Source of the DNA: Amphiscolops sp. MND2022
Taxonomy: Eukaryota
Length of the DNA: 64,000 bases
Direction of reading: 5' to 3'
Assembly: GCA_964187785.1 (NCBI GenBank)
Contig: OZ076409.1
Location: 65,660,001-65,724,000, forward strand
Both the position numbers and the translations under genes were made by a program. Shown here piece after piece: positions 2,573-44,665 of this stretch (the stretch's first letter is position 1; every line of letters begins with the position of its first letter). The notes beneath the pieces are model-generated. The model was given only the letters and a program-made list of their open reading frames with translations, was not told the origin of the DNA and ran no database searches.

Positions 2573-4351
2573 TGTCGCAGGCTGCCGCCTGTGATGGCAA
2601 CAACTATACGACCTCGGGATACGGACAAGAAATTACCCCAGGTACATTACCCATTTATTAAACTCAAAACTGCAATTGCCAAGACTCGCTTTAACTATTT
2701 TAGTTTATTTATCCAAACTGAATATTAGTCTGTTAAGTACAATTTGGAATTGTCCAAATTGGGATGTTTTATGTTGCAAATGTGTTGAATACAATTACAG
2801 CAGAGCAATGTAATATAAAGCAACTGTAAGGCAGTATAGGAAACGTGTTCAAGTGATGCTAAGCGCTGATCCAAAAGCGTCACTTGAGCGCATTGTCTTA
2901 TCCAATCAGAGCGCTGTATTTGTTGTGCTATATTAGCTTTGTTGCTATCATGGCCTAATTAGGCCTATTTCCTAAATAACGCTTGCTGTACTGTATTACT
3001 TGGTCAAACGGCCGGTTCCGGCCATTTTGTACAAATAGTTAATTGACGTTGCTTTGATAGTAATAACCGGACCTATTATTTCAAATTCACTTTAGTCCAC
3101 TTGTTGATGCTATAATTATACTCCCCCTCTGCCTAAATGTGAGAAATGAGCATAATAATAATTGCAGTTGGAATGAAGCCTCTCCCCACCTTTTCCCAGT
3201 GCAAGACTGAAACCCCGGACATGGCCAGTTTCGGCCTCGTGAAAATAACTTGCACCAATTTCACTGCTGCGTTTGTTGATCATGATTTATTCAATTTGAT
3301 ACGTGAATTAGACGGCACATGGCAAGCCGCGTGGCAGCACGTGCTGTCTCAACACCTTGTAATAAGGAATGCAATGAACAGTGCATTGTTAACATTTTTG
3401 TTATTTGTATTGATGTTAAGTACGTTAGTTATTTGTTTGATGTTAACTCACGGTCGATGTAAGTTGGGCACGCCGCCTGTCACACCTATAACCACGTGAT
3501 GTTTGGAATAACATTTGACCTTACTAGGACGAATTCCTGAAAGTCTTTGAGGTGCTAACTATCTAACTGTATGTCGGTCCTCATGACCATTAAGGAATTT
3601 GTCGATTACAAATGGAATTTGATCACACTTGTAAGGGTATATATAGCAATGTTTCCTTGAGGTGATTATTAATTCCATACCGATTGTTCAGATCAGTTGA
3701 TTTGTTTCGCATTTATAGATTGCAAGACTAGATTACCAAATAAAATATTCAACCTTGAAATCTTGATGCCTACTACAAGGAAACAAAAGAAAGCTAGAAA
3801 GTCTAGAGGAATTGAGATGCTTTCTGACTTGGAGAACCTTGACATAATGCTAGGGGAAAACCACTTCAATAGAAATGAAAGGGACGGAAGTGTTAGTAGC
3901 AATTTCGGCAGAAGGCCTGGTAGTACCTCTGCAGATGAACTAGGAAATAATGGTGAAAACAGGCACTCAGCCACAAGGGACATTGATCCTGGTAATAATG
4001 CCGATTATGGTCGAAACTCAATTGGTGGCAACTCTAGTGCTGAGATTAACAAGTTGTCAAGTGAATTGAACTCTAGATTATCAAGAGAGTTAGATGATAT
4101 GATGTGTAGTGTCAATTCTCAGATCCAAAGGGCAATTAGTGATGCAATAAGCAACCAAGTACTCCCACAAATCCAATCCGCCCTTAGTGCCGGGTCAGGA
4201 CACATGACACAAAACAGATGGGACATTCCGTCCGAGAGACCGGAAATAAATTCCGAAGGACTGCAAAATACTAACCCCAAAGACAGTTCAACTAGCAAGC
4301 ATAACCATGACCATCAGAATGATGGTGGTATTAATTTAAATGCTTACGACA
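2573..4351 (+). repeat. 5' LTR of element A
   Basis: Direct repeat of 16917-18695, no differences seen by eye. TG...CA ends with a 5-bp inverted repeat. TATA-like TATATATA 3638-3645 and AATAAA 3739-3744. Confidence 0.96.
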
Positions 4352-10934: not shown

Positions 10935-13900
10935 TCAGGATTTAGTAGAAGAATCCTTACTAGGACTACCAACGACAGAGGATGACGATGATCGGGAAAC
11001 ACTCCTTCCCTTCTTCCGCTTCTTGCTACTGGGGATCCTTACTGCGGACTGATCTTCAACGGTACTACTCTCTGCCAAATTGACCTGCGTTGAAACCCTC
11101 TTCGGAGCTGAGTCGGCTTTGCGGTGAGTGGACAGGAGAGACTTATAGATTCTTGACCGACCGAAAGTGTCAGTATAAACCCAAGGATCGTACTCTGAGG
11201 AAAAGGCAGCACGTCCAAAGGACTCAGCTAGAGCAGAGAACTTGGCCAAGTGGGAGTCTTCACTGCTCCGTAAAACCGATCCGGCAACATTGGCCATGTA
11301 ACTCTGGCAAGGCAAGACCAGGTCCGTAAATCTGCTTTGCCCTCCTGCAGTGGTGACCTCTCCAAAGGTGACATCTGGGTAACTTGGGCTGACGGTGGTT
11401 GAACACAAACAACTCAATTTGAAGAGATATAACAAGTGTGGACGCTCATGAAGAAAATCAAGCCCCATCAGGAATTGAATCAAATCGGGTTCCACGCTAG
11501 TGATATCAAAGCTGGAACCGAAGGCAGTCTGGAGATGGTCCAGCAACTGAATATACTGGTCCCGACACTGAGACTCATTTGAATCTTCAACCCAAGATCG
11601 AAGTACAAAGGTGTTGTAGAGTACCTCGAAGTGCCGCAAAGCTACATCCGTGGGTCGCTTCAGCATTATATAAGGATCAAAGGCCGCCAATCCTTTTATG
11701 AGGTTGGTGCTGAAAGCTGTCTTCTCGAGTACTCCATTAATCAAAAACTGGATGTACTGCTGGCTGTCCTTGACGAAATCAGCTTTTACCTTATCGGCAG
11801 TGGCCAGGATGGCAGGACGTTCAGTTTTCTGGCCGAAATGGATTCCATCAGCCTTGACTCTGCTTGCCGTTGCCACTCGATTGCTCATCTTGAGACGAAT
11901 CAGGTATTCGTCTCCGGGGAGGAAAGTACCCTCACTGGTCTGGAACCGGAGGAGGAGAAACCAAGCGTTGGCAATTGGGGCAGTGTCCGGAGTATAGATT
12001 CGGGAGCAAAGCAGGCTGAGGAAGCGGCTAACTTCTCCGCATAGATAGAAGGAAGCATCCCGGCGGTATTGCAGATTCACTGTGAAGCTGGAAACGACTA
12101 AAAACAAAACTGATGTCCAACTCAAGACAGTTTTCTCTCACGAAAATTGTACAGGACTACACTCACAGTCATTGACGATCTTGCTGAAGAACTCCAGCTT
12201 AACGGTGAAGAATTCGTCACATATCAGTGACCACTCGAAACTTTGTGCCTGGAACAAACATATGGCCAATTGACGATTGGAAAACGGACCTTTAGTTTGT
12301 TTGACGGATAAGGACAACCCAAACCCTTAGGGGCTTAAGTGCAGATAAGGAAATCTAACCCTTCCTCTGGAGCCAGATCCTTCTTGCAGTGGTGCGTGAT
12401 TAGTGAGGTAGCGCACCACAGACTTCCACTCGGCAATGAGCTCTCGGCAAAGAATGGGCAGGGTTGGTACTTCTAGCTTGCAACTGGTTATGGCCTGAAA
12501 TACCAATTAAACCTGCGTTAGCATGATAGGGATATCTAAACGTCCTGACCCAGTTCCCGTTCCCTAGATGAAGATTCTATAAGAAAACTACTCACCTTGG
12601 TGAGCTCAGGACTTCTGATGACCCAGTCTTCCATGAGAGAACCGCCCAGAGAGACCATCAGAGCTTGCAGGACAGAGAAAAAATCTATTTTCCCAAAGAC
12701 GCTGTAGCTGGTTTTATGCATGAGGCAAGCTAGGGAGAAATGTTCAAATCGAGGACAGCTCTGAACCCCTTGGTTGTAATATCCAGACTCATCAATGGTT
12801 CTGGGTAGATCTGGATGACATCCCGAACAGGCGACTATTCCGGGCTTTGTGGACACAGCGGAGAGGAGGCGAGAAAGAGATCCCAGTTCGCCGGTAACAT
12901 CTGTAGTGAATCGGGAGCTACGACAGACGAACACCCTACAGAGTTCAGACCCCTTCCAGAACTTGATGGACATGTGTTTGAAAATTCCTACTGTTTCAAA
13001 TTCGAGGGAGAAGCACTGTTGGGAGTTGACTTGCTCCGCGATTTCATCAAGACAACAGATGAAGAAATGTTGGAAAATCGCCTAAAGACAGAAAGCACCT
13101 TTTGGACTAAATAGGGAAGAGGAAGACTTAGGAGAGACTGTCAATGAGTGAAGCGAAAAGTACTTACCGACAATCTTTCTTCACCCCAATCAAAATCGTT
13201 GAAACTGCTTTGATGGTTGGTGAACGATCCAATTCGGGACCACAGGTTGCGCAAGACCATCATATCGCCTTGGGTCCTGATGTAATCCCCAACCAGGCAG
13301 AGCTGAGTTTTGAGGCGAGCTTCAGGGGTGGCCATGGTAGTGGTGGAGCCTTTGACGAAGTCGTCATAAAAAGGAAAGCGCTCACCAATGTCCACTAATT
13401 CAACATTCCTGAATTTAGGCAGCTCTCTAGCTAACTCCACCTTGGTCAGGAGTTTCCCGTTCCCACCTCGGACTCGGAGTTGCGTCTTCCCTGTGACTGG
13501 ATCGACACTGCGGAGGTGTTCGTATCGCCAACGCTGGTCTCGCCGCAGATGACGTGCAGTCCGATGGTGCCTGAGGATTTCGTATGGCCCCTTTGACTTT
13601 ATGGAAAAATTCTTTTTACAAATGTGGCACCAGACCATGAGTGGATTATGAAGAGGATCTGCTGGGCCAGAAATGAAGGATCTCGTCCATCCAATTTTGC
13701 TAAAGAATTCCTCCCGCATAGGGACCCCACGTCTGGAGAGGGCCTTGCTTCCTTTCTTCTTTTTAGTCCCGGAGGATCCAGCGCTGGGTGCGGCTAGAGC
13801 TTGGTTCCTAACCTCAAGCAACGTATCATCTTGGCTACTGGACTCTGGGGCATCAATCTCAACATCCTGTGATATGTCTTGACTGGGAGTTTGCGGTTCA

Positions 13901-15159
13901 GGAGCGCCTTGACCTTGTGTGACCTTCTTGAAGGACTTGGTTATAAGATCCATTTCCGTTGCGCTGTCAGTCTCCCCATAATAGGAGGACTCTCCTGTCA
14001 TTTCAGTCTCAGTTGATCCAACATCTCTGTCCCCCAGAGTGGCTTCCCTTTCGGTGTCACTTCCGCTGGAACCTCCCATGGCTGCAGGTCCAGGAGTCTG
14101 AGCTCGTCTACCCGAGTAGAAATGTGCAGTCCTGGATGGAGCAATGGCTGGCCTGCCTCGAACCGCATCAATAACCATTTTTTCCATGGTTGAGAAGGAC
14201 CGTCCTAGAGTCTCATCGGTAAGGACTCTCAACAAGTGATATACTTGCGGCTCTGTGAAGGTGACGGTGGATTGGCCTACGGGGAACCTCGAGGATGGCG
14301 ACTCATCGAAATACTCCTTGAGAATTGCCCGACTCCTTCCTGAGAGGTGTGGTGGTTCTTTCTGAGTTGCGCCTTGCCCGGACGACGGCCCACTGGTACC
14401 TGGAACGTGAGGGTCAGGCCCAGTTTCGTCCCCTCCATCTGTTCCAGAGGCGTGAGAGAAAGGATGACTTCCATATAAAGCTACTGGAGCTATCACGCTG
14501 GACTGGTCGGTTGCCCCCTCATCTCCGCTGGGCTCTGTGAGGTATCGAACTCTTACTTCCCCACCGGGGAGGGGTGGAGCGTCTCCTACCGAGGAAGCTG
14601 CTTCCGTGTCCTGCTGCAGGGTTGGGCTATCTCCAGTGGTGTTGGCTGAAAGATCAATATCCACAAGTTCAACTAATTGGGATCCGGGTGTCCCGACTAC
14701 TCGAAAGGCTGACTCTAGAGCAGAAAGGTCAGCACTTGGGGTCTCCCCCACATTATCAGAAAGTGGGGTGCTCGCTCTTCTAGGCTCAGTGATGGGCGTA
14801 ATGACAGGATCCTTTGGGGTATCAAGATTGACTTCTGAGAATTGGCCTCTTTGCTCTGTCTTCTCTTGCGGAAGGCTTGATGTTTGCGCTCCCTCCAACT
14901 GACGTACCATATTGTCTGCATATGTAGTAACATCTGGGTCACTATCGGCGTTATGGGAAGAAGTGGCTTCGTCAATTCGTTGGCCGTGTGATTCTTGGGA
15001 CGTAGCTGGATGCTGGACTTGCTCAGTCTGTTCAGACAAGGGGTTGCTTGTCGAAACGCTGTCAGAGGGGTTAGCTGGTGTATTCACAACTTCAGTTGTT
15101 TGGTTCTCTAAACGAAAAGAGATAAAATTTGGCGGTATGCTTCCTCGAAAAGAATCCAT
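10935..15159 (-). CDS. Antisense spliced gene of element A: C2H2 zinc-finger, hAT-transposase-like protein (~1285 aa)
   Basis: Exons 15159-13168, 13081-12596, 12494-12360, 12248-12167, 12097-10935, joined by GT-AG introns (86, 101, 111, 69 nt), give 3858 nt in one frame, homologous along its length to the B and C genes. Possible alternative first exon 15323-15308 spliced to 15107. Product identity is inference. Confidence 0.85.
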
Positions 15160-15329
15160 ATTACCGCGTTAGAAATCTTCCGGAAGTATCTTAGACTTGA
15201 ACAAAACGTGTTATCACGTGCCTATTAGTGGAAACAGGAAGCGCTGTACGAACGAAATTTAGCCCTGATCAAGCTAAGCTAGTTCAACATGTGAAAACCA
15301 GACCAACCTGTACTCGAAGACATGCTTCT

Positions 15330-16222
15330 CCAGTATCGTTAGTCCAAAGTAGAAGAATGAGGAACAACGAAGGGACTGTGTGATTGAGCCAATCTCGGCT
15401 GGGGAAGGAAGGAACCAGAGATTCTCTGAGAGGGAGATGCCACTCGTGATGAGAGGAAAGGACGTCGTAATAGCAAAGTGTAACGAATATGCAAATGTGT
15501 TGAATTTGAATGGAGACAAATGGAAGTTAGATGGAATTGAAAATGTAACAATCAGATAGGATCGGAGAGTTGGAGTTCGTGGCTGAAGATTTACCAGACT
15601 AATATTATTCGATTATCTACATATTTAAAACTGTACACGGAGTCTGCCAGCGAAATGTACAGAAAATTCCTCGTTATTTATAACTTCGTTAGTTGAGTGG
15701 CCGATTACGGCCTTTTACCCTACTTACCTTTACCGTTTTGTTCCGTTGCCTTTATTACCCTTAGTTAGAAATCGCCATTTTAGAATAGTCAAAATTATTA
15801 TTTTTCGCCATTTTATTTATTAATTTTTCATTTTATCAACGGGTAATTCTGATTGGCTAACGCCATGTTGAGAAAGAGCTACGACGAGCGCAGTTAATTA
15901 CCTTCAAGCGACCTGTTAATTACCCACTTGAAAATAGTGAAGTTGGTTTTGATGACTCGAGTGTTATTCACACCTCTCCAAGCGGTGTAGTAGATGGGGG
16001 GTAAACATTGGATTATCAAAGGCAGCCAACTAATTATGGAATTCCATTCAAGAACGTTTATGTCGGATTGGGAGATTCGACTGAGGAATTCTACCGCCAC
16101 AACGAATTGCCGGGAAAAGACCGAACTCGGCTAATACCCTAAGTTTGATAAATTCATTCAATCTCATATTTCATCGACAAACAGTTGACTTGCCTAGACT
16201 CAAAATTGCAAAGAAATACATA
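15330..16222. promoter_or_regulatory. Putative internal bidirectional promoter region of element A
   Basis: Non-coding gap between divergent genes. TTGGAGTTCGTGGCT (15570-15584) and GGAGTCTGCCAGCGA (15639-15653) are conserved with element B at identical 54-nt spacing. Reverse CCAAT box (ATTGGCTAA) near 15853. Confidence 0.55.
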
Positions 16223-17005
16223 ATGAGCAAATTTAACCTCTCAAGGAAATTATTTGATCTTGAAGGTTGCGACTCAGATGAATCTACTGATTCAGTAATC
16301 TACATCTCTAGCGACGAAGAAGAGTCCTCATACTGGGAATCGGACTGTTCTACCGACACGGAACAATTAATCGCCCGCATAGAGAAAGAGGTTACGTCGA
16401 GCCCAATGCTGATCGCAGGACGAATTATGACGGTGGACACGACGGAAAATGATATGGTGGCTGGACCAAGCACGTCAAAGACGGACACTGAGATGACACC
16501 TAAACTGGATCACAGGTATTTCGACATAGACAGGTGCTACGCCCCCCCGAAGAAGGCCGGAAAATCAAAAATCGAGATTTGTAGTACGATTTTGCCAGTT
16601 TTGGAGTCGCCCCTATCTCCCCCGGATCACGAAAAGGGCCCAAGCAAAGACACCCCTTTGGTCCAATCAACTAGTGGGAGCTTCCGTGCCTCATATCATA
16701 TTCAGAACTCGAGGCCCTACGACGATATAAGCAGACAACGGTGTACTAGTTGCATGGTCTGCGGGAGAGCAGTAGATGAAATCAAAGAGGAAAAAATCAA
16801 GTGGTATATGGACAGATCGACCCCCAGAGGAGAGCCTGAGTACATCACCAAATTGAGGCGGGAAGCGTACGTGAACGGTCTTAACGCCGGCAGCTTACTT
16901 TTCATTGCACCCGCAGTGTCGCAGGCTGCCGCCTGTGATGGCAACAACTATACGACCTCGGGATACGGACAAGAAATTACCCCAGGTACATTACCCATTT
17001 ATTAA
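16223..17005 (+). CDS. Accessory sense ORF of element A (260 aa; acidic SIM-like N-terminus, CxxCxxC motif), ends inside the 3' LTR
   Basis: Homologous to B 52894-53730 (CTSCMVCG/CTDCLICG, VSQAAACDGN/VSQASACDGN); ATG context aaaattgcaaagaaa...ATG conserved with B. Confidence 0.8.
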   Translation: MSKFNLSRKLFDLEGCDSDESTDSVIYISSDEEESSYWESDCSTDTEQLIARIEKEVTSSPMLIAGRIMTVDTTENDMVAGPSTSKTDTEMTPKLDHRYFDIDRCYAPPKKAGKSKIEICSTILPVLESPLSPPDHEKGPSKDTPLVQSTSGSFRASYHIQNSRPYDDISRQRCTSCMVCGRAVDEIKEEKIKWYMDRSTPRGEPEYITKLRREAYVNGLNAGSLLFIAPAVSQAAACDGNNYTTSGYGQEITPGTLPIY

Positions 17006-18695
17006 ACTCAAAACTGCAATTGCCAAGACTCGCTTTAACTATTTTAGTTTATTTATCCAAACTGAATATTAGTCTGTTAAGTACAATTTGGAATTGTCCA
17101 AATTGGGATGTTTTATGTTGCAAATGTGTTGAATACAATTACAGCAGAGCAATGTAATATAAAGCAACTGTAAGGCAGTATAGGAAACGTGTTCAAGTGA
17201 TGCTAAGCGCTGATCCAAAAGCGTCACTTGAGCGCATTGTCTTATCCAATCAGAGCGCTGTATTTGTTGTGCTATATTAGCTTTGTTGCTATCATGGCCT
17301 AATTAGGCCTATTTCCTAAATAACGCTTGCTGTACTGTATTACTTGGTCAAACGGCCGGTTCCGGCCATTTTGTACAAATAGTTAATTGACGTTGCTTTG
17401 ATAGTAATAACCGGACCTATTATTTCAAATTCACTTTAGTCCACTTGTTGATGCTATAATTATACTCCCCCTCTGCCTAAATGTGAGAAATGAGCATAAT
17501 AATAATTGCAGTTGGAATGAAGCCTCTCCCCACCTTTTCCCAGTGCAAGACTGAAACCCCGGACATGGCCAGTTTCGGCCTCGTGAAAATAACTTGCACC
17601 AATTTCACTGCTGCGTTTGTTGATCATGATTTATTCAATTTGATACGTGAATTAGACGGCACATGGCAAGCCGCGTGGCAGCACGTGCTGTCTCAACACC
17701 TTGTAATAAGGAATGCAATGAACAGTGCATTGTTAACATTTTTGTTATTTGTATTGATGTTAAGTACGTTAGTTATTTGTTTGATGTTAACTCACGGTCG
17801 ATGTAAGTTGGGCACGCCGCCTGTCACACCTATAACCACGTGATGTTTGGAATAACATTTGACCTTACTAGGACGAATTCCTGAAAGTCTTTGAGGTGCT
17901 AACTATCTAACTGTATGTCGGTCCTCATGACCATTAAGGAATTTGTCGATTACAAATGGAATTTGATCACACTTGTAAGGGTATATATAGCAATGTTTCC
18001 TTGAGGTGATTATTAATTCCATACCGATTGTTCAGATCAGTTGATTTGTTTCGCATTTATAGATTGCAAGACTAGATTACCAAATAAAATATTCAACCTT
18101 GAAATCTTGATGCCTACTACAAGGAAACAAAAGAAAGCTAGAAAGTCTAGAGGAATTGAGATGCTTTCTGACTTGGAGAACCTTGACATAATGCTAGGGG
18201 AAAACCACTTCAATAGAAATGAAAGGGACGGAAGTGTTAGTAGCAATTTCGGCAGAAGGCCTGGTAGTACCTCTGCAGATGAACTAGGAAATAATGGTGA
18301 AAACAGGCACTCAGCCACAAGGGACATTGATCCTGGTAATAATGCCGATTATGGTCGAAACTCAATTGGTGGCAACTCTAGTGCTGAGATTAACAAGTTG
18401 TCAAGTGAATTGAACTCTAGATTATCAAGAGAGTTAGATGATATGATGTGTAGTGTCAATTCTCAGATCCAAAGGGCAATTAGTGATGCAATAAGCAACC
18501 AAGTACTCCCACAAATCCAATCCGCCCTTAGTGCCGGGTCAGGACACATGACACAAAACAGATGGGACATTCCGTCCGAGAGACCGGAAATAAATTCCGA
18601 AGGACTGCAAAATACTAACCCCAAAGACAGTTCAACTAGCAAGCATAACCATGACCATCAGAATGATGGTGGTATTAATTTAAATGCTTACGACA
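16917..18695 (+). repeat. 3' LTR of element A (contains truncated gag copy 18110-18730)
   Basis: Direct repeat of 2573-4351 followed by TSD GCTAC. Confidence 0.96.
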
Positions 18696-20292: not shown

Positions 20293-21720
20293 TGTCCCAG
20301 GCGTCCGCCTGTGATGGCAACTTGTATTCTATTTGCCACAACTACCAAAAAGCTCTACCCAACACGATCCATTTAAATTGAAACTTTTTAAATGAACTGC
20401 ATTTGTATCTCAAAAGTCATGTAATTTATTTATTCTGAATATAAAATATCATGTAGTGATGATTTAATATTATGTAATACCGGCGCTAATTTGTACGTTG
20501 CTAGTAGATTGGACACCAAGGCGTACAGGTAGAGGAAACGCGTTCAAATGTTTTCTCGCCTGTCGCCTTGGTCTACCGGTCCAATTAACTCGCTAGCCAA
20601 TCACAGTGCAGTACTTTCTTTATTCGGTGCTGTATTATGCTGCTAGATTAAAGGGACTGAGCGGCCATATGCCGCCAGTCAACAATATCTCGGTCCACTC
20701 ATGTCGATTGGACGCTGAGGCCGTTTTTGGAATTAAAGGCGCTTGCTGGAAAGTGCTATGAATTACATAATAACCGGTGCTTTACTGTCTTATTTAGTGA
20801 ATTATCAGTCCTTAGAGGACATGTAATCTGTGCTTAATAGTGCGCCATCAATGCCTTTGATATATTTCATGCAATTAGAAAATGTTGAAATACATGTAGT
20901 TTATTGCGTTCATACATGTATGTCGTTGCTTGTCCGCATGGACCTTCAGTCTTCCCGCCACAATAACTGTCGGGAATTATTATTAGAAAATGATGATCAA
21001 TATTATGCGTGTCATGTAGTTTGTTATATATATATAGCGGAGACATTTAGTCCCGGGACACAAGAAGTTTGACCTTACTACATGCTTGTTACTTGATACT
21101 GAGTAATCTCACACTGAATTTGCAAGCCTGAGAACTTAATTTAAATTCTTACCTCTTGCAATAATCTCTTATGCCTTCTACTAGACGACAAAAAGCGAAA
21201 GCTAGGAAATCTAGGGAAATGGACATGATGTCCGACTTTGAAAACTTAGATGTGATGCTGGGAAATAACAATAATAATCCCATAGAAAGAGAATTAGCTG
21301 AAGCTATAGATCAGTCGTCGGCCCATGGGGACGCTGATACACACACGTACCTAGAAAATGAATATAGAGATTATCAGCATGAAAATGATGTACTGAGACA
21401 AAATGAAATCAAGCACTCCTTTGAAACATTCTCGAATGAGTTTAATCTCAGATTGTCTCAAGAAATGGATTCTATGATGTCAATGATGCATAATCAAATA
21501 AATAGAGCTGTCACAACAGCTATAAATGAAAGAGTCATTCCAGAGATCCAAAACATTGCTAGTTCCATGTCCTCTGCTGGGCACAGGGACACTGAGGCCA
21601 GTTCGTCCCCGAATAGCCAGGAAAACAGGGAAAGCGTATCTGGGCCTAAAATAAAAATTGCAAAGAAGGATTCACGATCTGTAGGAGATCTAAGAGAGAC
21701 CCTAGGTCAGAGTTCTCACA
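20293..21720 (+). repeat. 5' LTR of element B (1428 bp; lacks 80 bp present in the 3' LTR)
   Basis: Direct repeat of 53642-55149; TG...CA ends; TATA-like (TA)n near 21025. Confidence 0.95.
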
Positions 21721-22859
21721 TGGTGACAGGAGCTATTGACACCCAACAGCAGATTCCTGAATTCCTGACTGGACGAATCCACTCAATCCCGAACCTCCAG
21801 AGGCAACATTCCAACCACAATGTCTCTCTAGACGCGACTCTGCCAGCCCCAGACCCCGAGGTCCCAGAGCCACAGCAGGACCCGTTCAACAGATTGGCTG
21901 ATGTATTAGTCAATTTGCAAAATAAACCACAAACTATGACCATTAGACCTGTCCAAACAACTCCAATGACGTTTGACGGAAAAAGCGAAAAATTTGAGCT
22001 TTTTGAGGACTTGTTCCACACGATGATCAAAATGCAACCTGCAATGACAGAACAGATGAAAATCAACCATTTCCATTCATTGCTACGAAAAGGGGCATTA
22101 CAGACATTTAGGAACATAAACTCCATCAACCGTCAGACTCTGGAAGACGTACTGGTCATATTCCGGAGAAAGTACGTTAAACCGGAATCCCAAGCGACGG
22201 CAAAACACAAATGGCATCGACTGACGTTCGACCCAAATACCATGAAATTGCCGGACTTCTTGGAAGAACTGAACCAAGGAGCTGAAAAAGCTTTTGGTGA
22301 AAATGCAAAAAGCATGATTGACAGTTTGTTATATGCGAAACTTCCACCAAAATTAAAACGATCTGTCAACATGGCCCGGTTGGAGAACGGGACGTATGAA
22401 GAAATAGTCGCTCATCTTGAAAGAGAGCTAGAACTTAATGCATTAGAAGAGTTCGATGACTTGCCAATGGCCACTATGGCCTCGGCGTCAACAAACCAGA
22501 GCAACTTGCTTTCTACCGGCATCAACACCAACAAAGACGCTCAATGCTCCTATTGCAAGGCAACCGGACATTTTTACAAAAGCTGTCCTAAACTCAAGAA
22601 AAAGAAAGAAATGGAGGAAAAAGATGGCAAAAAACCACAGCGTCCTACTTACCCAACTTGTGACACATGTGGGAAAAAGAACCATTCAACTGAAAAATGT
22701 TGGCAAGGCGCAGGTGCCCACCTGCGTCCCAAGAGGTTACAAGCGGAGCAAAAAGATCCAAATGCCTCAACTTCAGAAAGCAAACCTAAAACACCAGGTG
22801 ACACGACGACCACCAGCTCAAGCCAATCCAATATCAAAAAGACAGATCCAAAAAACTAA
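21171..22859 (+). CDS. gag: Gag of element B (562 aa; starts inside the LTR)
   Basis: Capsid core near-identical to A; CCHC knuckles CSYCKATGHFYKSC and CDTCGKKNHSTEKC; ends at slippery A AAA AAC TAA (22850-22859). Confidence 0.93.
   Translation: MPSTRRQKAKARKSREMDMMSDFENLDVMLGNNNNNPIERELAEAIDQSSAHGDADTHTYLENEYRDYQHENDVLRQNEIKHSFETFSNEFNLRLSQEMDSMMSMMHNQINRAVTTAINERVIPEIQNIASSMSSAGHRDTEASSSPNSQENRESVSGPKIKIAKKDSRSVGDLRETLGQSSHMVTGAIDTQQQIPEFLTGRIHSIPNLQRQHSNHNVSLDATLPAPDPEVPEPQQDPFNRLADVLVNLQNKPQTMTIRPVQTTPMTFDGKSEKFELFEDLFHTMIKMQPAMTEQMKINHFHSLLRKGALQTFRNINSINRQTLEDVLVIFRRKYVKPESQATAKHKWHRLTFDPNTMKLPDFLEELNQGAEKAFGENAKSMIDSLLYAKLPPKLKRSVNMARLENGTYEEIVAHLERELELNALEEFDDLPMATMASASTNQSNLLSTGINTNKDAQCSYCKATGHFYKSCPKLKKKKEMEEKDGKKPQRPTYPTCDTCGKKNHSTEKCWQGAGAHLRPKRLQAEQKDPNASTSESKPKTPGDTTTTSSSQSNIKKTDPKN
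21721..21732 (+). other. Primer binding site of element B
   Basis: TGGTGACAGGAG abutting the LTR end. Confidence 0.9.
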
Positions 22860-25800
22860 TTTTGCCACGACTCCAAATACATGACTATATGTCGGTTCGA
22901 CAGTATGTCATTTCAGACCCTCCAATTATAACATTCCGACACTATATAAAGGATACCACAGGCACCCCATCCGTCGTCTGGCAGCAACAGATGGAGAAAG
23001 CCTGCATCAAAACCTATAAACAAGTACACAACGATCGCCCAGACCGATTTTACGAAACTGACTATACTAAAGACTTTGAGACTCAATTCCGTCCCTTACC
23101 ATTGGTCGAAGACTACCATCCTCAATACATTGACGCTGAGTATGGCAAAGATCCGTATTGGGATGATGAATTATATGACAAACGAAATCTCCAATTCCGG
23201 AACGAAGACTATCCCCCAACAGACGATGAGGACGATCCCCAAATAGATGACACTAAACTCTCTAGGGCCCTCATTGAACTTTGGCAACCAAATTCTGAAG
23301 CAATCTCAAGAGAAATAGGGGAAACTCAAGAGCAAGAAGATCACCAAGACCCCAATAGCCTCCTGGATGAAACAGCCTTCTTGCATATTTTAGTGGAACA
23401 ACAAGGTGAACCATCATACGTTCCTCTTTCCACTAATCTTGGACTTAAAATTAAAAGGCGGATGTTATATTTTCCAATGGACTTTGGAGAACTAACGTTA
23501 GATGGACTCATAGACACTGGGGCCCACTCCAGCGCAATCCCAGAAGCAGACCTCAGGAAAATACGGCTATTAGCGCCTCAATCCATAGTCAAAGAGGGAC
23601 CTGCCCCATCTTTCCAAATCATGGTCGCAAATGGTGACCTAGAGACTCCCAAAAGCACAGTGGAATTGAAATTTGAAGTAGGGGACATTGAGTTCCATGA
23701 GATCTTCATTGTGATGGAAAAACTATCCAGCCCCATAATTGGACTTATGTTCTTACAAAGAAATCACACAGTCCTAGATATGCGCCAAGGCATACTCAAC
23801 TTCCCCTTTTTCTCGATGCAATTGAAAACGGCTGACCACAAATACTCGAACGTCATGGAGCCCATCCTCAATCCTGAGGATGCCACAATTCCACCAAATG
23901 ACCGTACAATCATCTCCATTCAATCCAGAATTTACGCAGAAAATGCTGTCACTGGGATTTTACAGCCCAGTGAACATCTAAATGAAGAAAATGATATAAC
24001 CTTCTGCGCTGCCATAATTACACTCGATGAAGGGACCACGAGGATACACATTAATAATTTTACTGACCAACCCTACAAACTCAAGAAGGGGATGCATATA
24101 GCCAACTTCTCAGTAATGACGCCAGAGCAGATGAAACACGTCAGGCCAATAGACCCAGTGTCCACATGGCACCTCCTCAATGAAAATGAAGAAGATGCTG
24201 TTCAATATATCAGCAGCCTTCTGAAAGCCAACAGGAATAACGACCAATATGAACAATATTGGTTCCCAACTCCTGAGAACCCGGGGGACGAAGCGTCCCA
24301 CACGCCAATACAAAAACGAATACTCAGAGAATTGCGAAATTTGCAAGAGGCAGAAAGCCTCAATCCTCAAGAAAATGAAGAATCTCGGCAAAAATTCCTC
24401 AGTAATTTTGATTGGAAAGACTCAATGCTACAACAGCATGAAATCAAACAAATAGAAGCTCTCTTAGTGGAATTTCATGACATATTTGCACGTCATAGAT
24501 TTGATATTGGGATGAACGAGGAGTTCACGGTCAAATTGACCCCGAAGGACGACTCACCCGCATACAGCCAGAGCTTACCGACTCCAATAAATTTAAAAGA
24601 GGATATCCTAGTTGAGCTGGCATTACTCCACAAATACGGTATTATAACTACTTTACCGTTCTCAAAATATGCCAGTCCTATTTTCGCACAAAAGAAGCCT
24701 AATGGGAAGCTACGATTATTAGTAGACCTCAAGAAGATCAATAATTTGATTTCTGATGATTATATTAATAACAACCACCCAGTTAGTACCTTGACGGACG
24801 CTGCGCAACACATGGCCGGGAAGAAACTTTTTTGCAAACTTGATTGCTCACAGGCGTACCACTGCCTCCAAATGGCAGACCAAAGGTCTATTGAAATGCT
24901 GGCCTTCAATTTCGCCAGCAGAACTTTCGCTTACAGACGATTGGCCCAAGGACTCAGTAGAGCCCTGTCGGCTTTCTCTAGCTTCATGAGGGAATACTTG
25001 GACCGCGTTATCAAGGCAGACCAATGTGCGCAATATGTCGACGACATTGGCATAGCAGCAAATGATGCCGAACATTTGATCAAAAACCTCCGAGCCACAT
25101 TTGAATGCATAAGAGAGGCTGGATTAAAACTCACAATGCACAAATGTCATTTTGGCGCAACAGAAATTGACTTTCTGGGAAGAACAATCACCCCAGAGGG
25201 CGTCAAGCCTCAAAAGGAAAGTATCACAAACTTCCTAGAAAAAACTAAATTTCCGAAATCCAAAAAAGCCTTGCAAAGATATCTCGGTTTCCTCAATTAT
25301 TACAGAAACTACATACCGAGACTATCAGAAAAATTGGTTCCCTTCTTTCAACTACTTAAGAAGGACGAGAAGGTCTTAGTCACATCAGAGCTAATCGAAC
25401 AATTCAACGAAATCAATAGAGACCTGGACCGGTGTAGCCAATTAGCCTTGAGGCAACCACTGCCGAATCGACAGCTAGTCCTGATGACAGATGCCAGTTT
25501 TACGGCAGCAGGATACGCTATACTCACTGAAGACGATCCAAACCAGAAATTCACCTCAGTCAAGAAATCCTATGCACCTATTGCTTATGGTTCGAAAACT
25601 TTTATTCCTTCCCAACTCAAAATGTCGATATATGCGAAAGAATTTCTCGCTATATATTATGCATTTAAAGAATTCGGACATATATTCTGGGGGACACCTA
25701 AACCGGTAATTATCCTTACAGACAACAAATCGGTCACAAGGTTCTTCCAGACCAAGATCATACCGCCGCCATTATGGAATGCCTGTGATTTCGTCATCCA

Positions 25801-27957
25801 GTTCAACTTTATAATAGCCCACATTCCAGGCAAGAATAATACAGCGGCAGACTACTTGTCCCGTATGGAAATGGAACCGACCGAAAAGTTAGTTTTGAAA
25901 ATTCGTGCAGACGTTGAAACACAGCCTATTGAAGTCAACGTGCAGTCGGCCGGTGTGTCCGAAGAGGAACAAGTGTTCTTTACTGAGGAAGATAATGAAA
26001 CGGAAGAACAAATCTGGGAACGAAAACGACAATCAAAAGCAGGACTCAAAGTCCCGGAGACTGTCATCCAAATTGATGCCATATCCGAAAATATCGTCGA
26101 AGAAATTACTAATTTCACCCAGAAGCTCCGTAGAACTAATCAAATACTGCTAGAGCAATCCAAAGACCCGATATTACTTCAATTAAAGGCAAAAATTCAG
26201 AATGAAGAATACTCTGAGGAGATCCTCCAACAGGACATCAGGTATAGACATTATTTGAATAATCTAGACCGAATAGTCCTCAAAGACGAAATTGTCACAA
26301 GGAAATACTATGACGAAACAGGCCAAATTAAACACCACCAGATATTACTGCCCAAACACTTGTTAAAAGAATTACTGCAAGCAATACATGGCACGGCCCA
26401 TAAACACCCGGGCATATCCAAAATGTTACAAGAAATTCGCCAAAAATACTACTACCCTGGGATAGCCAAACATGTTAAAAAATGGGTAGAAGGCTGTGAG
26501 ACGTGTGCCAGAGACAAAGGGTCCCTAACAATACAATCACGCCAGAATTGTTAAATTTGCCCGAGTGGGACCTAGGTCCCGAAGATGCCATGCAGATCGA
26601 CTTACTACCAAATCTACCGACTAGTGGAGGATACCAGACAGTGATGACGGCTATTGATATATTTTCAAGATACCTATTCGCCTACCCGCTAATTGAGGCA
26701 ACAGCCACGAATGTAGCCAAGGTGATAATTGACATAATGACGAAACATTCATATTTGCCAACAACTCTCATCACAGACAAGGGGTCCGCATTTACATCGA
26801 CCATCATAGCTGAGATAACTCAAATTTTGGGCATAACACTCAAATGCGCAACTACAAAGCACCCGCAAACAATCGGCAAGCTGGAAAGGACGCATGCCTC
26901 ACTCAAAACCAATTTGAAAATGGCCTCAGGAGAGTATCGACGCCAATGGCATAAATACCTGCCATTAGCAGTACTCAACTATAATACCACATATCACTCC
27001 AGTATTGGATGTGAACCGAGTAAAGTCTTTCATGGCCGAATTCCTTTTAACGTCCTAGATCACAAATTGGGGAACAATCCCAATAAAAATTTCATGCCAA
27101 CTACAGACTTTGCGGAAGAAGTGCAACAGCGGACACAAATCCTCCTTGATCAGACCAAAAAGAACATAATGCAGTCCTACCTAAAGTATAAGGACTACTA
27201 CGACCGAAAGGCCAAAGCGGCTCCGCTTAAAGAAAACGATTATTGTTTTATCCTACAACCTAAAGCGGACAGTCAAGCATCAAAGATCCCATTCAGGGAA
27301 TACAGGTGGATTGGCCCCTTTGTCGTTCAGACAGTACTGTCCAATGACAATTATATTGTGCGTCGATTAAATACAAATAAAACACAAATACTACATCGCA
27401 TTAGATTAAAGAAATTCGTACCAAATGCCCCCTTAGAGGACAAATATGAAGGTGAAAAATTACAGCCCGACAATGAGATAGTAATACCACAAGACGACTT
27501 GTATTCCATCTCATGGGAAGTGGATTTTGAGTACGACTTATTTGAACCGAGAAAGGAAGATTGGACCGACGTGGCCACACGCCGGCCGACCGACACCGAG
27601 GACGGCAGTGCGGATCATTACGTCATTGAAAATGAACGCAGCAGCGCGAGCGAAAATGAAAGCCGCTCCGAACGAAATAACGAGGATGACGTCACCGAGA
27701 ATGAAATATGGCCAACAAAGAAGAATAACAGTGACGAATCGTCCCCGCTGAACGAAACGCCATATGAGAACGACAATCAAAATGACGTCACTAATGATTT
27801 CAAAAATACGGAAAGCGTTTCAAACAGAGGCGCAGATATTACCGTGCCCGGAATATCGGAAAAAGAAAGCTTTGAAGAAAACTCTAGCCCTAGAGGAGGG
27901 AGATATAACCTTCGACCTAACCCCAACCCCAACTTTACTGATGAATACAGATACTAG
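22856..27957 (+). pseudogene. pol: Pol of element B, frameshifted in the integrase N-terminal region
   Basis: ORFs 22862-26554 and 26503-27957 together match A pol. GACAAAGGGTCCCT at ~26513-26526 lacks one base relative to the KDKRVP frame of A. Confidence 0.92.
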
Positions 27958-28192
27958 CCAGAAATTTGAATTACTAGTCCCCTCTTTATTTTGACTATTG
28001 GTCCATGAGGACATTCATTTTTTACTTGGGACTTTCTGACTTACTTTGTTACTCGAAATAATTATGTACAATAAAGAAGACTTAGTGGCGAATAATACAA
28101 AGCCACGCCCAAACAAAACAACAAACAGATGAAATAAATATAAAGCAGTTTACAACAAGTACAGTCTAGAAACAAATGTACTCTTTGTACAT

Positions 28193-28898
28193 TTAGGATT
28201 TAGAAGTTCCGGGAGCGTTCACATCACTGGACTTTCCGGCTTCAGTTTCACTAGCTACCCGAAAGCCAACTTTCTTGCCTTTACCCGGGGACAGCTTACG
28301 TTGTTTCCCCCCTTCTTTAGACGAGGAATTGGAAGCGGACTCGATGTCAGGACGGACACTCTTGCCCAGAGCTTTGTAAACTGCGATTAAGGTTTTATGC
28401 AAATTAGCTTTGCCGAAACTGTCTACGTGCGACCAAGGGTCTCCTGGGACGTTGCCAATACTGAATCGGAATTCCAGATCTTTGAATGTACCCAAGGAAG
28501 CTTCTGTAGTGCACACAGCCACTGAATTTGCCACATTAGCTAGGTAAGACTGTGCAGGCATGATCACATCGAAAAGTCTACTTCGGGGATCATTGCAATC
28601 AACTCCAGGGAATTTGATGGCTGGGAGCTCTGGCAACTTAGAAGTCAGGCACAGACAACTCAACTGGAAGATGTAGAACAGATGTTTCCGCAACTTCAAT
28701 TCAGGCATACCAATCAGAAAGGCTACCATGTCGGTGAAGACCTCTGGGGTATCCTTGACTCCAGAGTTGGCTTGACGGAAGTACTCCACGAAATCGACGT
28801 ACTCGTCTCGGGCATCGGTCTCTGGGGAATTCTCTAACCAGCCTCGCAAACTAAAGGATCGGTACAGAGCGGAGAAACAATATGTGGCTTGCTCAAGC
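28193..28898 (-). pseudogene. Duplicated 3' fragment of the B antisense gene (retains the ancestral C-terminus ...PGTSKS)
   Basis: Near-identical to 31245-31949; truncated at the duplication junction. Confidence 0.85.
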
Positions 28899-28899
28899 T

Positions 28900-31009
28900 C
28901 AGACTACTTGTCCCGTATGGAAATGGAACCGACCGAAAAGTTAGTTTTGAAAATTCGTGCAGACGTTGAAACACAGCCTATTGAAGTCAACGTGCAGTCG
29001 GCCGGTGTGTCCGAAGAGGAACAAGTGTTCTTTACTGAGGAAGATAATGAAACGGAAGAACAAATCTGGGAACGAAAACGACAATCAAAAGCAGGACTCA
29101 AAGTCCCGGAGACTGTCATCCAAATTGATGCCATATCCGAAAATATCGTCGAAGAAATTACTAATTTCACCCAGAAGCTCCGTAGAACTAATCAAATACT
29201 GCTAGAGCAATCCAAAGACCCGATATTACTTCAATTAAAGGCAAAAATTCAGAATGAAGAATACTCTGAGGAGATCCTCCAACAGGACATCAGGTATAGA
29301 CATTATTTGAATAATCTAGACCGAATAGTCCTCAAAGACGAAATTGTCACAAGGAAATACTATGACGAAACAGGCCAAATTAAACACCACCAGATATTAC
29401 TGCCCAAACACTTGTTAAAAGAATTACTGCAAGCAATACATGGCACGGCCCATAAACACCCGGGCATATCCAAAATGTTACAAGAAATTCGCCAAAAATA
29501 CTACTACCCTGGGATAGCCAAACATGTTAAAAAATGGGTAGAAGGCTGTGAGACGTGTGCCAGAGACAAAGGGTCCCTAACAATACAATCACGCCAGAAT
29601 TGTTAAATTTGCCCGAGTGGGACCTAGGTCCCGAAGATGCCATGCAGATCGACTTACTACCAAATCTACCGACTAGTGGAGGATACCAGACAGTGATGAC
29701 GGCTATTGATATATTTTCAAGATACCTATTCGCCTACCCGCTAATTGAGGCAACAGCCACGAATGTAGCCAAGGTGATAATTGACATAATGACGAAACAT
29801 TCATATTTGCCAACAACTCTCATCACAGACAAGGGGTCCGCATTTACATCGACCATCATAGCTGAGATAACTCAAATTTTGGGCATAACACTCAAATGCG
29901 CAACTACAAAGCACCCGCAAACAATCGGCAAGCTGGAAAGGACGCATGCCTCACTCAAAACCAATTTGAAAATGGCCTCAGGAGAGTATCGACGCCAATG
30001 GCATAAATACCTGCCATTAGCAGTACTCAACTATAATACCACATATCACTCCAGTATTGGATGTGAACCGAGTAAAGTCTTTCATGGCCGAATTCCTTTT
30101 AACGTCCTAGATCACAAATTGGGGAACAATCCCAATAAAAATTTCATGCCAACTACAGACTTTGCGGAAGAAGTGCAACAGCGGACACAAATCCTCCTTG
30201 ATCAGACCAAAAAGAACATAATGCAGTCCTACCTAAAGTATAAGGACTACTACGACCGAAAGGCCAAAGCGGCTCCGCTTAAAGAAAACGATTATTGTTT
30301 TATCCTACAACCTAAAGCGGACAGTCAAGCATCAAAGATCCCATTCAGGGAATACAGGTGGATTGGCCCCTTTGTCGTTCAGACAGTACTGTCCAATGAC
30401 AATTATATTGTGCGTCGATTAAATACAAATAAAACACAAATACTACATCGCATTAGATTAAAGAAATTCGTACCAAATGCCCCCTTAGAGGACAAATATG
30501 AAGGTGAAAAATTACAGCCCGACAATGAGATAGTGATACCACAAGACGACTTGTATTCCATCTCATGGGAAGTGGATTTTGAGTACGACTTATTTGAACC
30601 GAGAAAGGAAGATTGGACCGACGTGGCCACACGCCGGCCGACCGACACCGAGGACGGCAGTGCGGATCATTACGTCATTGAAAATGAACGCAGCAGCGCG
30701 AGCGAAAATGAAAGCCGCTCCGAACGAAATAACGAGGATGACGTCACCGAGAATGAAATATGGCCAACAAAGAAGAATAACAGTGACGAATCGTCCCCGC
30801 TGAACGAAACGCCATATGAGAACGACAATCAAAATGACGTCACTAATGATTTCAAAAATACGGAAAGCGTTTCAAACAGAGGCGCAGATATTACCGTGCC
30901 CGGAATATCGGAAAAAGAAAGCTTTGAAGAAAACTCTAGCCCTAGAGGAGGGAGATATAACCTTCGACCTAACCCCAACCCCAACTTTACTGATGAATAC
31001 AGATACTAG
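28900..31009 (+). pseudogene. pol: Duplicated pol fragment (RNase H tail plus integrase) with the same frameshift
   Basis: ORFs 28884-29606 and 29555-31009 repeat the translation of 25848-27957. Confidence 0.9.
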
Positions 31010-31244
31010 CCAGAAATTTGAATTACTAGTCCCCTCTTTATTTTGACTATTGGTCCATGAGGACATTCATTTTTTACTTGGGACTTTCTGACTTACTTTG
31101 TTACTCGAAATAATTATGTACAATAAAGAAGACTTAGTGGCGAATAATACAAAGCCACGCCCAAACAAAACAACAAACAGATGAAATAAATATAAAGCAG
31201 TTTACAACAAGTACAGTCTAGAAACAAATGTACTCTTTGTACAT

Positions 31245-34200
31245 TTAGGATTTAGAAGTTCCGGGAGCGTTCACATCACTGGACTTTGCGGCTTCAGTTT
31301 CACTAGCTACCCGAAAGCCAACTTTCTTGCCTTTACCCGGGGACAGCTTACGTTGTTTCCCCCTTCTTTAGACGAGGAATTGGAAGCGGACTCGATGTCA
31401 GGACGGACACTCTTGCCCAGAGCTTTGTAAACTGCGATTAAGGTTTTATGCAAATTAGCTTTGCCGAAACTGTCTACGTGCGACCAAAGGTCTCCTGGGA
31501 CGTTGCCAATACTGAATCGGAATTCCAGATCTTTGAATGTACCCAAGGAAGCTTCTGCAGTGCACACAGCCACTGAATTTGCCACATTAGCTAGGTAAGA
31601 CTGTGCAGGCATGATCACATCGAAAAGTCTACTTCGGGGATCATTGCAATCAACTCCAGGGAATTTGATGGCTGGGAGCTCTGGCAACTTAGAAGTCAGG
31701 CACAGACAACTCAACTGGAAGATGTAGAACAGATGTTTCCGCAACTTCAATTCAGGCATACCAATCAGAAAGGCTACCATGTCGGTGAAGACCTCTGGGG
31801 TATCCTTGACTCCAGAGTTGGCTTGACGGAAGTACTCCACGAAATCGACGTACTCGTCTCGGGCATCGGCCTCTGGGGAATTCTCTAACCAGCCTCGCAA
31901 ACTAAAGGATCGGTACAGAGCGGAGAAACAATATGTGGCTTGCTCAAGCGGCAGACTCAGGAGGGCTACTGGATCGAATCTGCCCAGGCCTCTTACGATA
32001 CCAGCATTCAGGCTAATGTCGGCAAGGAAGACTTTCAAAAGATGGACGAGGTAACCTCGGGCCTTGGTGGCGAAATCGTCCCGAATGGCCTCAGCTGCTG
32101 TTTCCGTCTCTTCAGGTGTCAGTTGCTTCTCACTATAAATTCTCTTGACGCGAGCATGGCATGCGGCATCCAAATTTTCTTTGAGCTTCAAGCGACTCAA
32201 GAAATCTCGATTAGACAGTTGTCGCCAATTCTGTCCTTGCAAATCGCCCAGCGACTTCCAGTCCAGGATATCAGGCACGTGTCTGGGAAGTAGTGCTCGA
32301 CCTGCCAACTTGCGGATGAAAGTATGGAACTCTCGGAAGGTGTAGAAGCCACTATCCCTTCGCTGTGCAAACTGACTCTCGAAGCTCTTGGTGTCTGGAA
32401 AACAAAACATTACCATCCTGAAGGGTCCCTATGACACCATTAGACCTAACGTGTCAATCTACTATATCTCGCATGAGCCTCAAATAGTGGTAAGAGAAAC
32501 TGAGACCATGAGGTCCGTGGACAGGAGGAAAACCAATATACTAACAATCGCGGACAATTCGTGCGAAGAACTCCAGCTTGATGGTGAAGAAATCATCAGC
32601 TATGATTTCCCACTCGAGGCTTTGGGGCTTGCTTTTGACCCCCTGGTGGACCTGTGGTGGTGCAATCTTCGTCAAATGCTGGTGCACAGACTTCCAGTTC
32701 GCAATCAGTTCCGAACATATGGCTGGTACAGCGGCAATTTCCAGGTGATAGGTAGACATCGCCTACAATCAACATGTTCATTGGAGGCAATTCAAAGCTG
32801 GACCTACAGTCTTACGGACAGTGACCTTACCTTAACGAATTCTGGCATTAGGGCGGCCCATGGCTGTCCACCGCAACCGTCCAAGAAAGTAACCAGAAAC
32901 TTCAACTGAGAGAAGAAACTGATGGTGCCAAACACGCTGCCCCATCGTTCGTGCATCAGGTCCGGCAGACAAAGTGCATCAAATCGAAAAGGGTACTCAA
33001 TCCCTTTTTGGAAGAGGCAAGAACGTTCAAGAAGAGGAATCACCTCTGCAGGACACCCAGACACGCTCACAATCTGAGGTTGTGTTGATAGGACGGACAA
33101 GAGACGGGAAAGTACCAACAGGAAACCAGCAGCAGGTTCTGAAGCAGTCCGATATCGTAGCAAACGGACGACATTAAGGGATTTGCCCTTCCAGAATCGG
33201 ATCGAAACAAAGCTGTAGGTGCCTCGCATTTCAAACTCCAGAGAGTACTGACCCGTGACACTGACTTGGTACGCGATGTCAGCGATACCACAGAGGAAGA
33301 TGTGATGAAAGATCGTCTAAAACAAAATTAACTAGGATGAAAATGCATCGAGGCTACGTTAGGGCTAAAGGACCCTGAGACTAGAAGTCGCCAATACTTA
33401 CTGTCAGTTTGGAGGAGCCCCAATCGTAAGGAGAGAACAGACTCTGATGGTTGGTTACAGTGCCAATCTGTGACCATAACGACTCAAGAACGTTTAGATC
33501 TCCACAACGAGGAGCGAAGAGAGCAACCATAGAGATTTGGACGCACAGTCTGATCTCCTCCTGCCCAGCGATGGAGCCCAGGCAGGCCATATGATCCTCG
33601 TAGAAGGGGTTGCTGCTGCCAGTTTCAACCAAGGGAACTTGCATGAAGAAGGGCTTCTCTTTCTCAAGTTCTAAGGGAGTCAACAATTGGCCCTTCTTCC
33701 CTCTGACTTCGTGCACAATCCGGCCAGTCACCTTGTCTTTCTTCCTTAAGTGTTCGTATCTCCAGCGCTGATCTTTGCGGAAATGCGACTCACACTGGAA
33801 ATGGCGGACGATCTCCCGAGCTCCTTTTGAAAAAATGGAAACGTTCGTCTTGCATATTTGGCAGTAGAACTTATGTTTATTATGCTCTGGGTCGAGGGGG
33901 CCGGCGACGAATGTGCGAGTCCACTGGATTCCTTTGAAATAGGCCTCTTTCATTATTTTGCCTGTGCGTCCAGGAAGCCGACGACGTTTGGGAGGTGGAC
34001 TTGAGGCAGAAGCTTGGTCAGTGGTCAATGTGGCTAAGGGCTCATAGTCGGTTGAGCAGAATCCTGGACTAGGGACTTGTTGTGCAGATGATGGTCCAGG
34101 TGTTGAAGTCGAACTTTGATCTGGAGGGCTTGGAGGGGGATTGATGTTCAGATCCTTGCCAGTTCTTTGCGAATTGATGACAAACTCATCTTCCGAACTG

Positions 34201-44519: not shown

Positions 44520-44665
44520 CTGAAAACAATCAGCAGGCTAAACCGAACCGGAGTAGCTACGTAAAATTATCATCTAAACTAAAAAGAACAGCAACAAAGC
44601 CAAAATTATAGTTCCTTCAGAATCATCAAAACATAATAAAAGTCTACAAATCGTCACAACACAAA

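Follow-up and report, generated by a model that had tools for sequence, protein, structure and literature searches.

An extra sense gene with a candidate SUMO-interacting motif in Ty3/gypsy LTR retrotransposons of Amphiscolops sp.

Introduction

What is encoded by the extra sense gene that adjoins the 3′ LTR of three retrotransposons of Amphiscolops sp. MND2022, does it serve the element, and could the short motif common to its three versions bind SUMO? The question arises in a 64-kb stretch of contig OZ076409.1 (64,000 nucleotides, hereafter the window), in which the three elements, named A, B and C, each carry such a gene (ORF4). SUMO has been described as a key switch in piRNA-guided transposon silencing (10.1101/2021.07.27.453956), and viruses are reported to use SUMO-interacting motifs (SIMs) against SUMO-dependent silencing (PMC12751080). 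Transposon-encoded protein suppressors of silencing are presented as rare, plant VANC being named the most convincing case (PMC6719617).

LTR elements with extra ORFs are already known (PMC11963269, PMC5408684). The LTR retrotransposons described here carry two accessory genes as a module: an intron-bearing hAT-like gene is paired head-to-head with ORF4, an arrangement that is unusual in itself. Full-text literature searches of incomplete coverage listed neither a retrotransposon accessory protein with a SIM nor an antisense hAT-like gene in an LTR element.

Results and Discussion

Three Ty3/gypsy elements in the window

The window contains three Ty3/gypsy LTR retrotransposons, all on the + strand, with C nested within B. 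Element A (2573-18695) is bounded by TG...CA LTRs and a 5-bp target duplication; its 5′ LTR (2573..4351, +), inside which gag starts, and its 3′ LTR (16917..18695, +) show 0 mismatches. Element B (20293..55149, LTRs at 20293-21720 and 53642-55149) is interrupted by element C (35860..52284, LTRs at 35860-38200 and 49944-52284), which sits in the head-to-head intergenic region of B. The LTR pair of B differs by 3 mismatches and one 80-nt gap and that of C by 6 mismatches, and both elements have a 5-bp target duplication. With LTR pairs this close to identity, the three insertions are recent.

The Ty3/gypsy assignment follows the PR-RT-RH-IN order of pol and a CCHC knuckle in gag, both found by a Pfam scan. 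In element A, gag (3766-5478, +) is joined to pol (PR-RT-RH-IN, to 10682) by a slippery site for -1 frameshifting where gag stops; the gag genes of all three elements start within the LTR and end on a -1 slippery heptamer. The pol of C is 51-54% identical to those of A and B, and the pol of B is in two frames, split within the integrase. After pol, each element shows the same layout: an antisense multi-exon gene, intergenic DNA (about 1.1-1.2 kb in A and B) and the sense ORF4.

The LTR-internal gag starts cover 3766-4351 in A, 21171-21720 in B and 37822-38200 in C, so that U5 is coding over several hundred bases and gag includes the primer-binding site; the first letters of this site, TGGTGACAGGAG, are alike in A, B and C. 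Within the LTR of A, a TATA-like sequence is found at position 1066, AATAAA at 1167 and the gag ATG at 1194. The 3′ LTR of A (16917) is preceded by no clear polypurine tract. Element B contains a direct 3.05-kb duplication (25848-31957, 99.7%) spanning the ends of pol and of the antisense gene, with the same integrase frame break in both copies; it could be real or an assembly artefact.

ORF4 is a conserved coding gene

ORF4 extends over 16223..17005 in A (260 aa, largely disordered by prediction), 52894..53730 in B (278 aa) and 49142..50014 in C (290 aa), always on the + strand. A previous reading made from the letters alone (the sequence-only reading) had reported sense ORFs of 260-290 aa, which agrees with these lengths, but had placed them before the 3′ LTR; the last 29 codons in A and B and the last 23 in C lie inside it. 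Since the LTR starts inside ORF4 (at 16917, 53642 and 49944), its first bases are expected to be under both coding and terminal constraint. The absence of a transmembrane segment, from which the same reading had concluded that ORF4 is not env, holds up, with 19-residue Kyte-Doolittle maxima of 1.35 (A), 1.44 (B) and 0.52 (C). We discarded env as a candidate, as hydropathy gave no segment of transmembrane strength and Pfam no env family. The gene can be said only loosely to stand "in place of env": it is a non-env ORF, but the antisense gene lies between pol and ORF4.

The ORF4 proteins of A and B are homologues, 34% identical over 172 aa (E 1e-29), and in tblastx between A and B the ORF4 frame was the strongest (E 4e-17, opposite-strand shadow 7e-4). 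Outside the LTR (residues 93-231), identity at codon positions 1/2/3 was 0.50/0.63/0.29, compared with 0.83/0.94/0.43 for RT-RH of A and B, the protein-guided alignment inflating the values at positions 1 and 2. At 90% identity, a profile search with the A/B ORF4 gave 301 clusters, and at 50% it gave 510 representatives; the best 120 and the best 150, respectively, were analysed, as protein sequences. The C ORF4 profile gave 97 clusters. The rows listed in the 90% search and in the C search share one source label, so the family may come mostly from one genome. A relative from a different collection, L001, is 28% identical and possesses the motif. Viral contigs gave no relatives of either ORF4 or the antisense exon, and in metagenome contigs the search for ORF4 relatives yielded 1 of 352 candidate stretches.

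That no ORF4 protein exists, the frame being a by-product of RNA- or LTR-level constraint, appears extremely improbable. Its last 23-29 codons overlap the LTR start and are partly constrained at the DNA level (position-3 identity 0.48). However, position 3 is saturated outside the LTR, A and B use different codons for 6 of the 7 identical residues of the motif window, the frames remain full-length across clusters down to 16-35% identity, and shortly before the ORF4 ATG A and B agree over 15 nt without a mismatch (0/300 shuffles). Taken at the level of sequence comparison, these data show ORF4 to be a genuine selected accessory gene of a large Ty3/gypsy clade. The proposal of a non-env accessory gene is thus borne out by the conserved coding frame, the codon-position pattern and the hundreds of clusters.

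The ORF4 of C could not be related to those of A and B outside the motif. The best match between A and C had an E value of 0.23 and covered the motif only, and profile searches in both directions gave nothing significant; homology beyond the motif was rejected on these pairwise and two-way profile searches.

Other frames were seen around the C-type gene. A 102-aa basic sense ORF (48453-48761, +) lies upstream of the C ORF4; nothing corresponding was seen in A or B. Other open frames occur at 47400-48300. The protein P0215 is a chimeric frame in which the finger region of the antisense gene is joined to a C-type ORF4 tail, which implies a rearranged copy.

A parallel SIM-like motif is the constant element of ORF4

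The hydrophobic-SSD(E/D)E motif that had been claimed for all three elements was found in each: VIYISSDEEE in A (16295..16321, +, V25-E33), IICISSDDE in B (52981-53007, +) and VIDISSDEE in C (49160-49186, +). Its core had been written as [VI]-x-[VI]-[VI]; the actual core is V-I-x-I, that is hydrophobic-hydrophobic-x-hydrophobic. In the published description, a parallel SIM has this hydrophobic-hydrophobic-x-hydrophobic order and then residues that are acidic or can be phosphorylated, frequently by CK2, and an antiparallel SIM is the reverse of it (PMC12751080). The ORF4 motif fits the parallel phospho-SIM pattern as a sequence. When the 64 kb are translated in six frames, the pattern [VI][VI]x[VIL][ST][ST][DE][DE] has exactly 3 matches, one per ORF4; the chance of such a match per protein is 3.7e-4 (A), 2.0e-4 (B) and 8e-5 (C) in 200,000 residue shuffles each, for a strict pattern that was fitted after the motifs had been seen.

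Column conservation in 83 A-like rows was V94 I99 Y92 I95 S95 S99 (%), or 92-99% over VIYISS, and in the C family (about 80 rows with the region) V89 I96 D98 I98 S97 S96 D94. Among conserved 6-mers the motif ranked second in 36 A-like rows and first in 48 C rows. A looser pattern was matched by 90/120 A/B sequences and 66/97 C sequences, many of the misses being without the N-terminus, and by none of the controls (0/120 antisense-exon homologs; 0/10 gag, pol and antisense frames). The motif is the sole stretch common to the A/B and C families of ORF4, although the pol and antisense genes of these elements are orthologous.

Twenty-two divergent rows (16-74% identity to A) keep S29, S30 and D31 at 90% or above. 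Across the family as a whole, A-like, C-family and divergent rows together, the motif is retained, a check that the sequence-only reading had proposed. Among the divergent rows S-S-D holds better than the hydrophobic core, which is lost in P0275, P0285, P0308 and P0313. A tree built from 25 chosen rows places these four in a single clade with good support. A strict reversed SIM (acidic-I-E-V-[IL]) occurs about 20 residues downstream in 2 of them, and in 3 if F is allowed, a change made after the rows had been seen; the fourth is without it. This is suggestive of SIM turnover from one event, and is not independent replication. The better retention of S-S-D and the absence of the strict reversed SIM in the other 2 rows suit, in sequence terms, a plain CK2 site. 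The residues found at the x position of the pattern are Y, C, W, N, I and D.

In the structural model of A, residues 1-45, which include the motif, have no secondary structure and a pLDDT below 50, low confidence not being proof of disorder. When residues 12-48 of the A protein were modelled in complex with a stand-in SUMO (from locus L003), the prediction reached 0.31 against a mark of 0.34, with controls at 0.00-0.02, and we give it no weight either way. The stand-in is encoded by a 90-aa SUMO gene (L003:382-654) on a giant-virus-type contig; it matches Pfam Rad60-SLD (E 5e-20) and is close to SUMO2 structures. SIMs are described as loose motifs that arise easily (PMC12751080), which counts against SUMO binding. 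Weighing these sequence data, we consider it likely that the ORF4 motif binds SUMO.

The motif is best kept in high-copy clusters

Counting only clusters that cover the motif region, with 29 low-copy rows lacking it set aside, the motif is intact in 61/62 clusters with at least 10 members, in 21/24 with 3-9 members and in 70/102 with 1-2 members. The contrast between 61/62 and 70/102 has a Fisher p of 5e-7; with one chimera dropped and three start-site artefacts counted as intact, the low-copy figure becomes 73/101 and p 5e-6. Within clusters, deviations affect 5/564 motif cells versus 623/24,179 cells elsewhere, and the V/I-I-x-I core is conserved at 91-100% per column in the high-copy clusters of both families. 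These counts support a motif that would be required by the element in order to propagate, and not by the host. A similar copy-number contrast would be expected wherever a site is constrained, and singletons, being decayed, should carry more mutations anyway.

The remainder of the ORF4 protein

The AlphaFold2 model of the A ORF4 has a mean pLDDT of 51.7 and is confident only in a helical hairpin (184-223). This hairpin belongs to a conserved C-terminal region (16580..16891, +) that includes C120, H159, C177 and C180. Of the CxxCxxC and C-terminal domain said to be shared by A and B, the conserved C-terminal region was recovered; CxxCxxC was rejected as a conserved unit, its first Cys being present in 38% of A-like rows versus 98% for C177 and C180. 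In the 22 divergent rows, C120, P125, S132, C177 and C180 are invariant and H159 is kept at 90% or above. C120, H159, C177 and C180 could possibly form a zinc site. A RING-type ligase (RNF4/ICP0 type), which needs eight metal ligands, was considered and rejected, since A and B conserve only C120, H159, C177 and C180 (plus C238) and Pfam gave no RING match. None of the A/B Cys/His ligands is conserved in the C family.

Searches with ORF4 returned only sub-threshold zinc-finger matches at CxxC in Pfam, a best E of 0.92 in a PDB profile search, no match in the ESM Atlas, none at E 0.001 in BFVD, and a generic helical hairpin (best Z 5.9) in the VIA wide structure search. As the model has a pLDDT of 52, these blank fold searches do not show a new fold.

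Other short motifs differ by family. RxLF (16244..16255, +, in A) is confined to the A-like subfamily, where it is found in 30/36 rows versus 1.5 expected by shuffling. Among 47 C-family rows, [ST]Px[KR] occurs in 46 (18.0 expected), an RVxF-like motif in 30 (1.1 expected), KEN in 19 (3.0 expected) and LxD[IVL][TS]N in 17 (0.2 expected); the last two are largely complementary, either one being present in 32/47 rows. All these expectations ignore shared ancestry, and the counts are not independent events. We take RxLF to be cyclin-docking-like, [ST]Px[KR] CDK-like, RVxF PP1-docking-like, and KEN and LxD[IVL][TS]N APC/C-degron-like. So read, the family-specific motifs suggest cell-cycle control of the ORF4 protein. 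The C ORF4 has a basic cluster too; no strongly basic NLS-like pattern was seen in A or B. LxCxE, BC-box, Fbw7, ABBA, FFAT and LIR patterns, compared by eye, did not fit ORF4.

The antisense neighbour and the head-to-head intergenic region

The antisense multi-exon gene of A (10935..15159, - strand) has a BED-like finger, a hAT-transposase-like body and predicted introns at 13167-13082 and 12595-12495. Its counterparts span 31307..35234 (-) in B and 44666..47476 (-) in C, the 5′ end in C being provisional. GT-AG splice sites, which mark the host as a eukaryote, are at matching places in all three, and the genes of C and A/B are orthologous (E 1e-12). Each of the three has the BED-like finger pattern, which in the B gene also gave a Pfam C2H2 match (E 8e-4). 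The last exon has 174 homolog clusters. Its model (pLDDT 71.6) gave Hermes as the top structural row (Z 6.5, rmsd 8.8, 194 aligned), tied with unrelated rows (next Z 6.1 and 6.0); Hermes is the only leading row that spans the whole model. Atlas leads were hAT dimerisation and FAM200-like clusters (scores 0.88-0.90, low recognition), while Pfam gave no match among 70 members of this exon and Foldseek none. The hAT assignment, as modelled, is a weak tie. Judged by eye, the residues at the expected first two catalytic Asp positions appear to be replaced. The gene probably encodes a dead, hAT-derived DNA-binding protein.

The head-to-head intergenic region of A (15160..16222, no strand assigned) is a candidate bidirectional internal promoter. 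Upstream of the ORF4 ATG, ATTGGCT is found at -371 (A), -403 (B) and -345 (L001), CAGTTG at -41, -74 and -56, and TTGCAA at -17, -17 and -24, respectively; ATTGGCT is presumably a reversed CCAAT box. A block with CCGGAAGT, common to A and B, adjoins the antisense ATG. Local upstream scores for A/B and A/L001 were above 300/300 shuffles; the B/L001 similarity was not significant (79/300 shuffles reach the score). In C, none of the three motifs is at a matching place, and upstream pairs with C did not rise above shuffles. By these similarities, ORF4 is probably transcribed from its own internal promoter, shared head-to-head with the antisense gene. The insertion of C at 35860, about 625 nt from the B antisense ATG and 610 nt from the B ORF4 ATG, splits the candidate promoter of B.

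The sequence-only reading had identified the accessory gene and its motif. It did not include the antisense hAT-like gene that faces ORF4, the candidate promoter between the two, the other short motifs or the lack of detectable homology between the C ORF4 and those of A and B.

What ORF4 may do for the element

We lean towards ORF4 being a selected, SUMO-binding nuclear accessory protein that serves the element. Its transcript would start at the internal promoter shared with the antisense gene and end in the 3′ LTR, and its product would be a mostly disordered nuclear adaptor. The one constant element would be the N-terminal parallel SIM, with serines in a CK2-type acidic context, a pattern from which phosphorylation would be expected to raise SUMO affinity; the other short motifs, differing by family, would time the protein by cell cycle. 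A counter-silencing role, in which ORF4 docks on or competes with SUMOylated silencing factors at element chromatin, is the likeliest single use, though we hold it at less than even odds. More speculatively, the antisense BED/hAT-like protein could be the DNA-targeting partner of ORF4. The full scheme, a self-targeted two-gene counter-silencing module in which a captured, dead hAT transposase binds element DNA and SUMO-dependent silencing is intercepted by a SIM under CK2 and cell-cycle control, kept or re-evolved as the rest of ORF4 was replaced, is improbable as a whole. If true, it would amount to VANC-like, protein-based anti-silencing by an LTR retrotransposon, with the SUMO step as its target.

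A SUMO-binding ORF4 could instead serve RNA or DNA traffic, through CERV/Rev-like export of genomic RNA or as an integration tether to SUMO-rich chromatin, timed by the cell cycle. We regard this as unlikely, though less so than the two alternatives below. CERV of Cer1 is described as a nuclear, phospho-dependent accessory protein with a Cys cluster, needed for genomic RNA export (PMC10309623), and ORF4 likewise has S/T-P sites and a Cys/His cluster, with [ST]Px[KR] in nearly all C-family rows and KEN or LxD[IVL][TS]N in most of them; C sits inside the intergenic region of B, and the window holds a cluster of such elements. However, CERV is made from a spliced mRNA that shares exons with gag, and the word "sumo" is absent from the main text of that report (PMC10309623); no RNA-binding region is evident in the A/B ORF4.

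The motif could also be a phospho-acidic site of CK2 type at which a non-SUMO partner docks or regulates, with the hydrophobic residues part of the interface. The retention of S29, S30 and D31 in the divergent rows and the loss of the core in a clade of 4 speak for such a site. Against it, the core is nearly fixed in the high-copy clusters of both families, the variable position falls exactly at the x of the SIM pattern, and a reversed SIM-like motif is found in 2/4 core-less rows; we find this reading quite doubtful. It is more doubtful still that ORF4 is a self-limiting repressor whose SIM brings SUMOylated corepressors, limiting activity to some cells or cell-cycle phases. SIM-type docking is described as a route of host repressors into silencing complexes (10.1101/2021.07.27.453956, PMC12751080), a brake that acts at set times would agree with the degron-like and CDK-like motifs, and the BED-like neighbour could give element-specific DNA targeting; but conservation of the motif is highest where clusters are most amplified, and a helper would explain this at least equally well. 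The SUMO question is directly testable, since the family has thousands of young copies, the motif is short and natural variants of it exist (intact, lost and reversed).

Comparison with known systems

The three elements resemble Retand (PMC11963269) and the bdelloid ORF3 types (PMC5408684), which are described as having gag, a PR-RT-RH-IN pol and extra ORFs in a long region from pol to the 3′ LTR; in Retand, the antisense ORFs likewise have a probable DNA-binding domain (PMC11963269). Unlike in these types, a spliced antisense hAT-like gene here faces a sense SIM-bearing gene head-to-head. No Pfam match to TRP28, env, GDSL or DEDDy was obtained in our elements. CERV of C. elegans Cer1 is similarly a non-env accessory protein of a gypsy-type element with a Cys cluster, and it is phospho-regulated and nuclear, as ORF4 would be, but according to its description it has 517 aa and three folded domains and is spliced with gag exons (PMC10309623), whereas ORF4 has 260-290 aa, is mostly disordered and is 3′ located. 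VANC of Arabidopsis VANDAL is also an element-encoded accessory protein and the model for family-specific counter-silencing; in contrast to ORF4, it comes from a plant DNA transposon and is reported to act on DNA methylation through tandem motifs (PMC6719617).

The candidate SIM resembles the phospho-SIMs of PML, DAXX, ICP0 and K-bZIP, in which a hydrophobic core followed by Ser/acidic residues lies in a disordered region (PMC12751080, PMC8430037). It differs from them in being retrotransposon-encoded and without a RING or other ligase domain. The antisense gene has a BED-like finger, as do Hermes and domesticated BED/hAT proteins; unlike these, it is carried in antisense orientation inside an LTR element.

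Other features of the window

Rfam and tRNA searches of the window gave no match. A repeat of 150-bp units flanks the element cluster on both sides (715-1040 and 57624-57945, 86%). At 58544-59007 lies an inverted repeat of 149 nt that has subunits of 15-16 bp and is presumably MITE-like, and at 62898-63002 a TC microsatellite.
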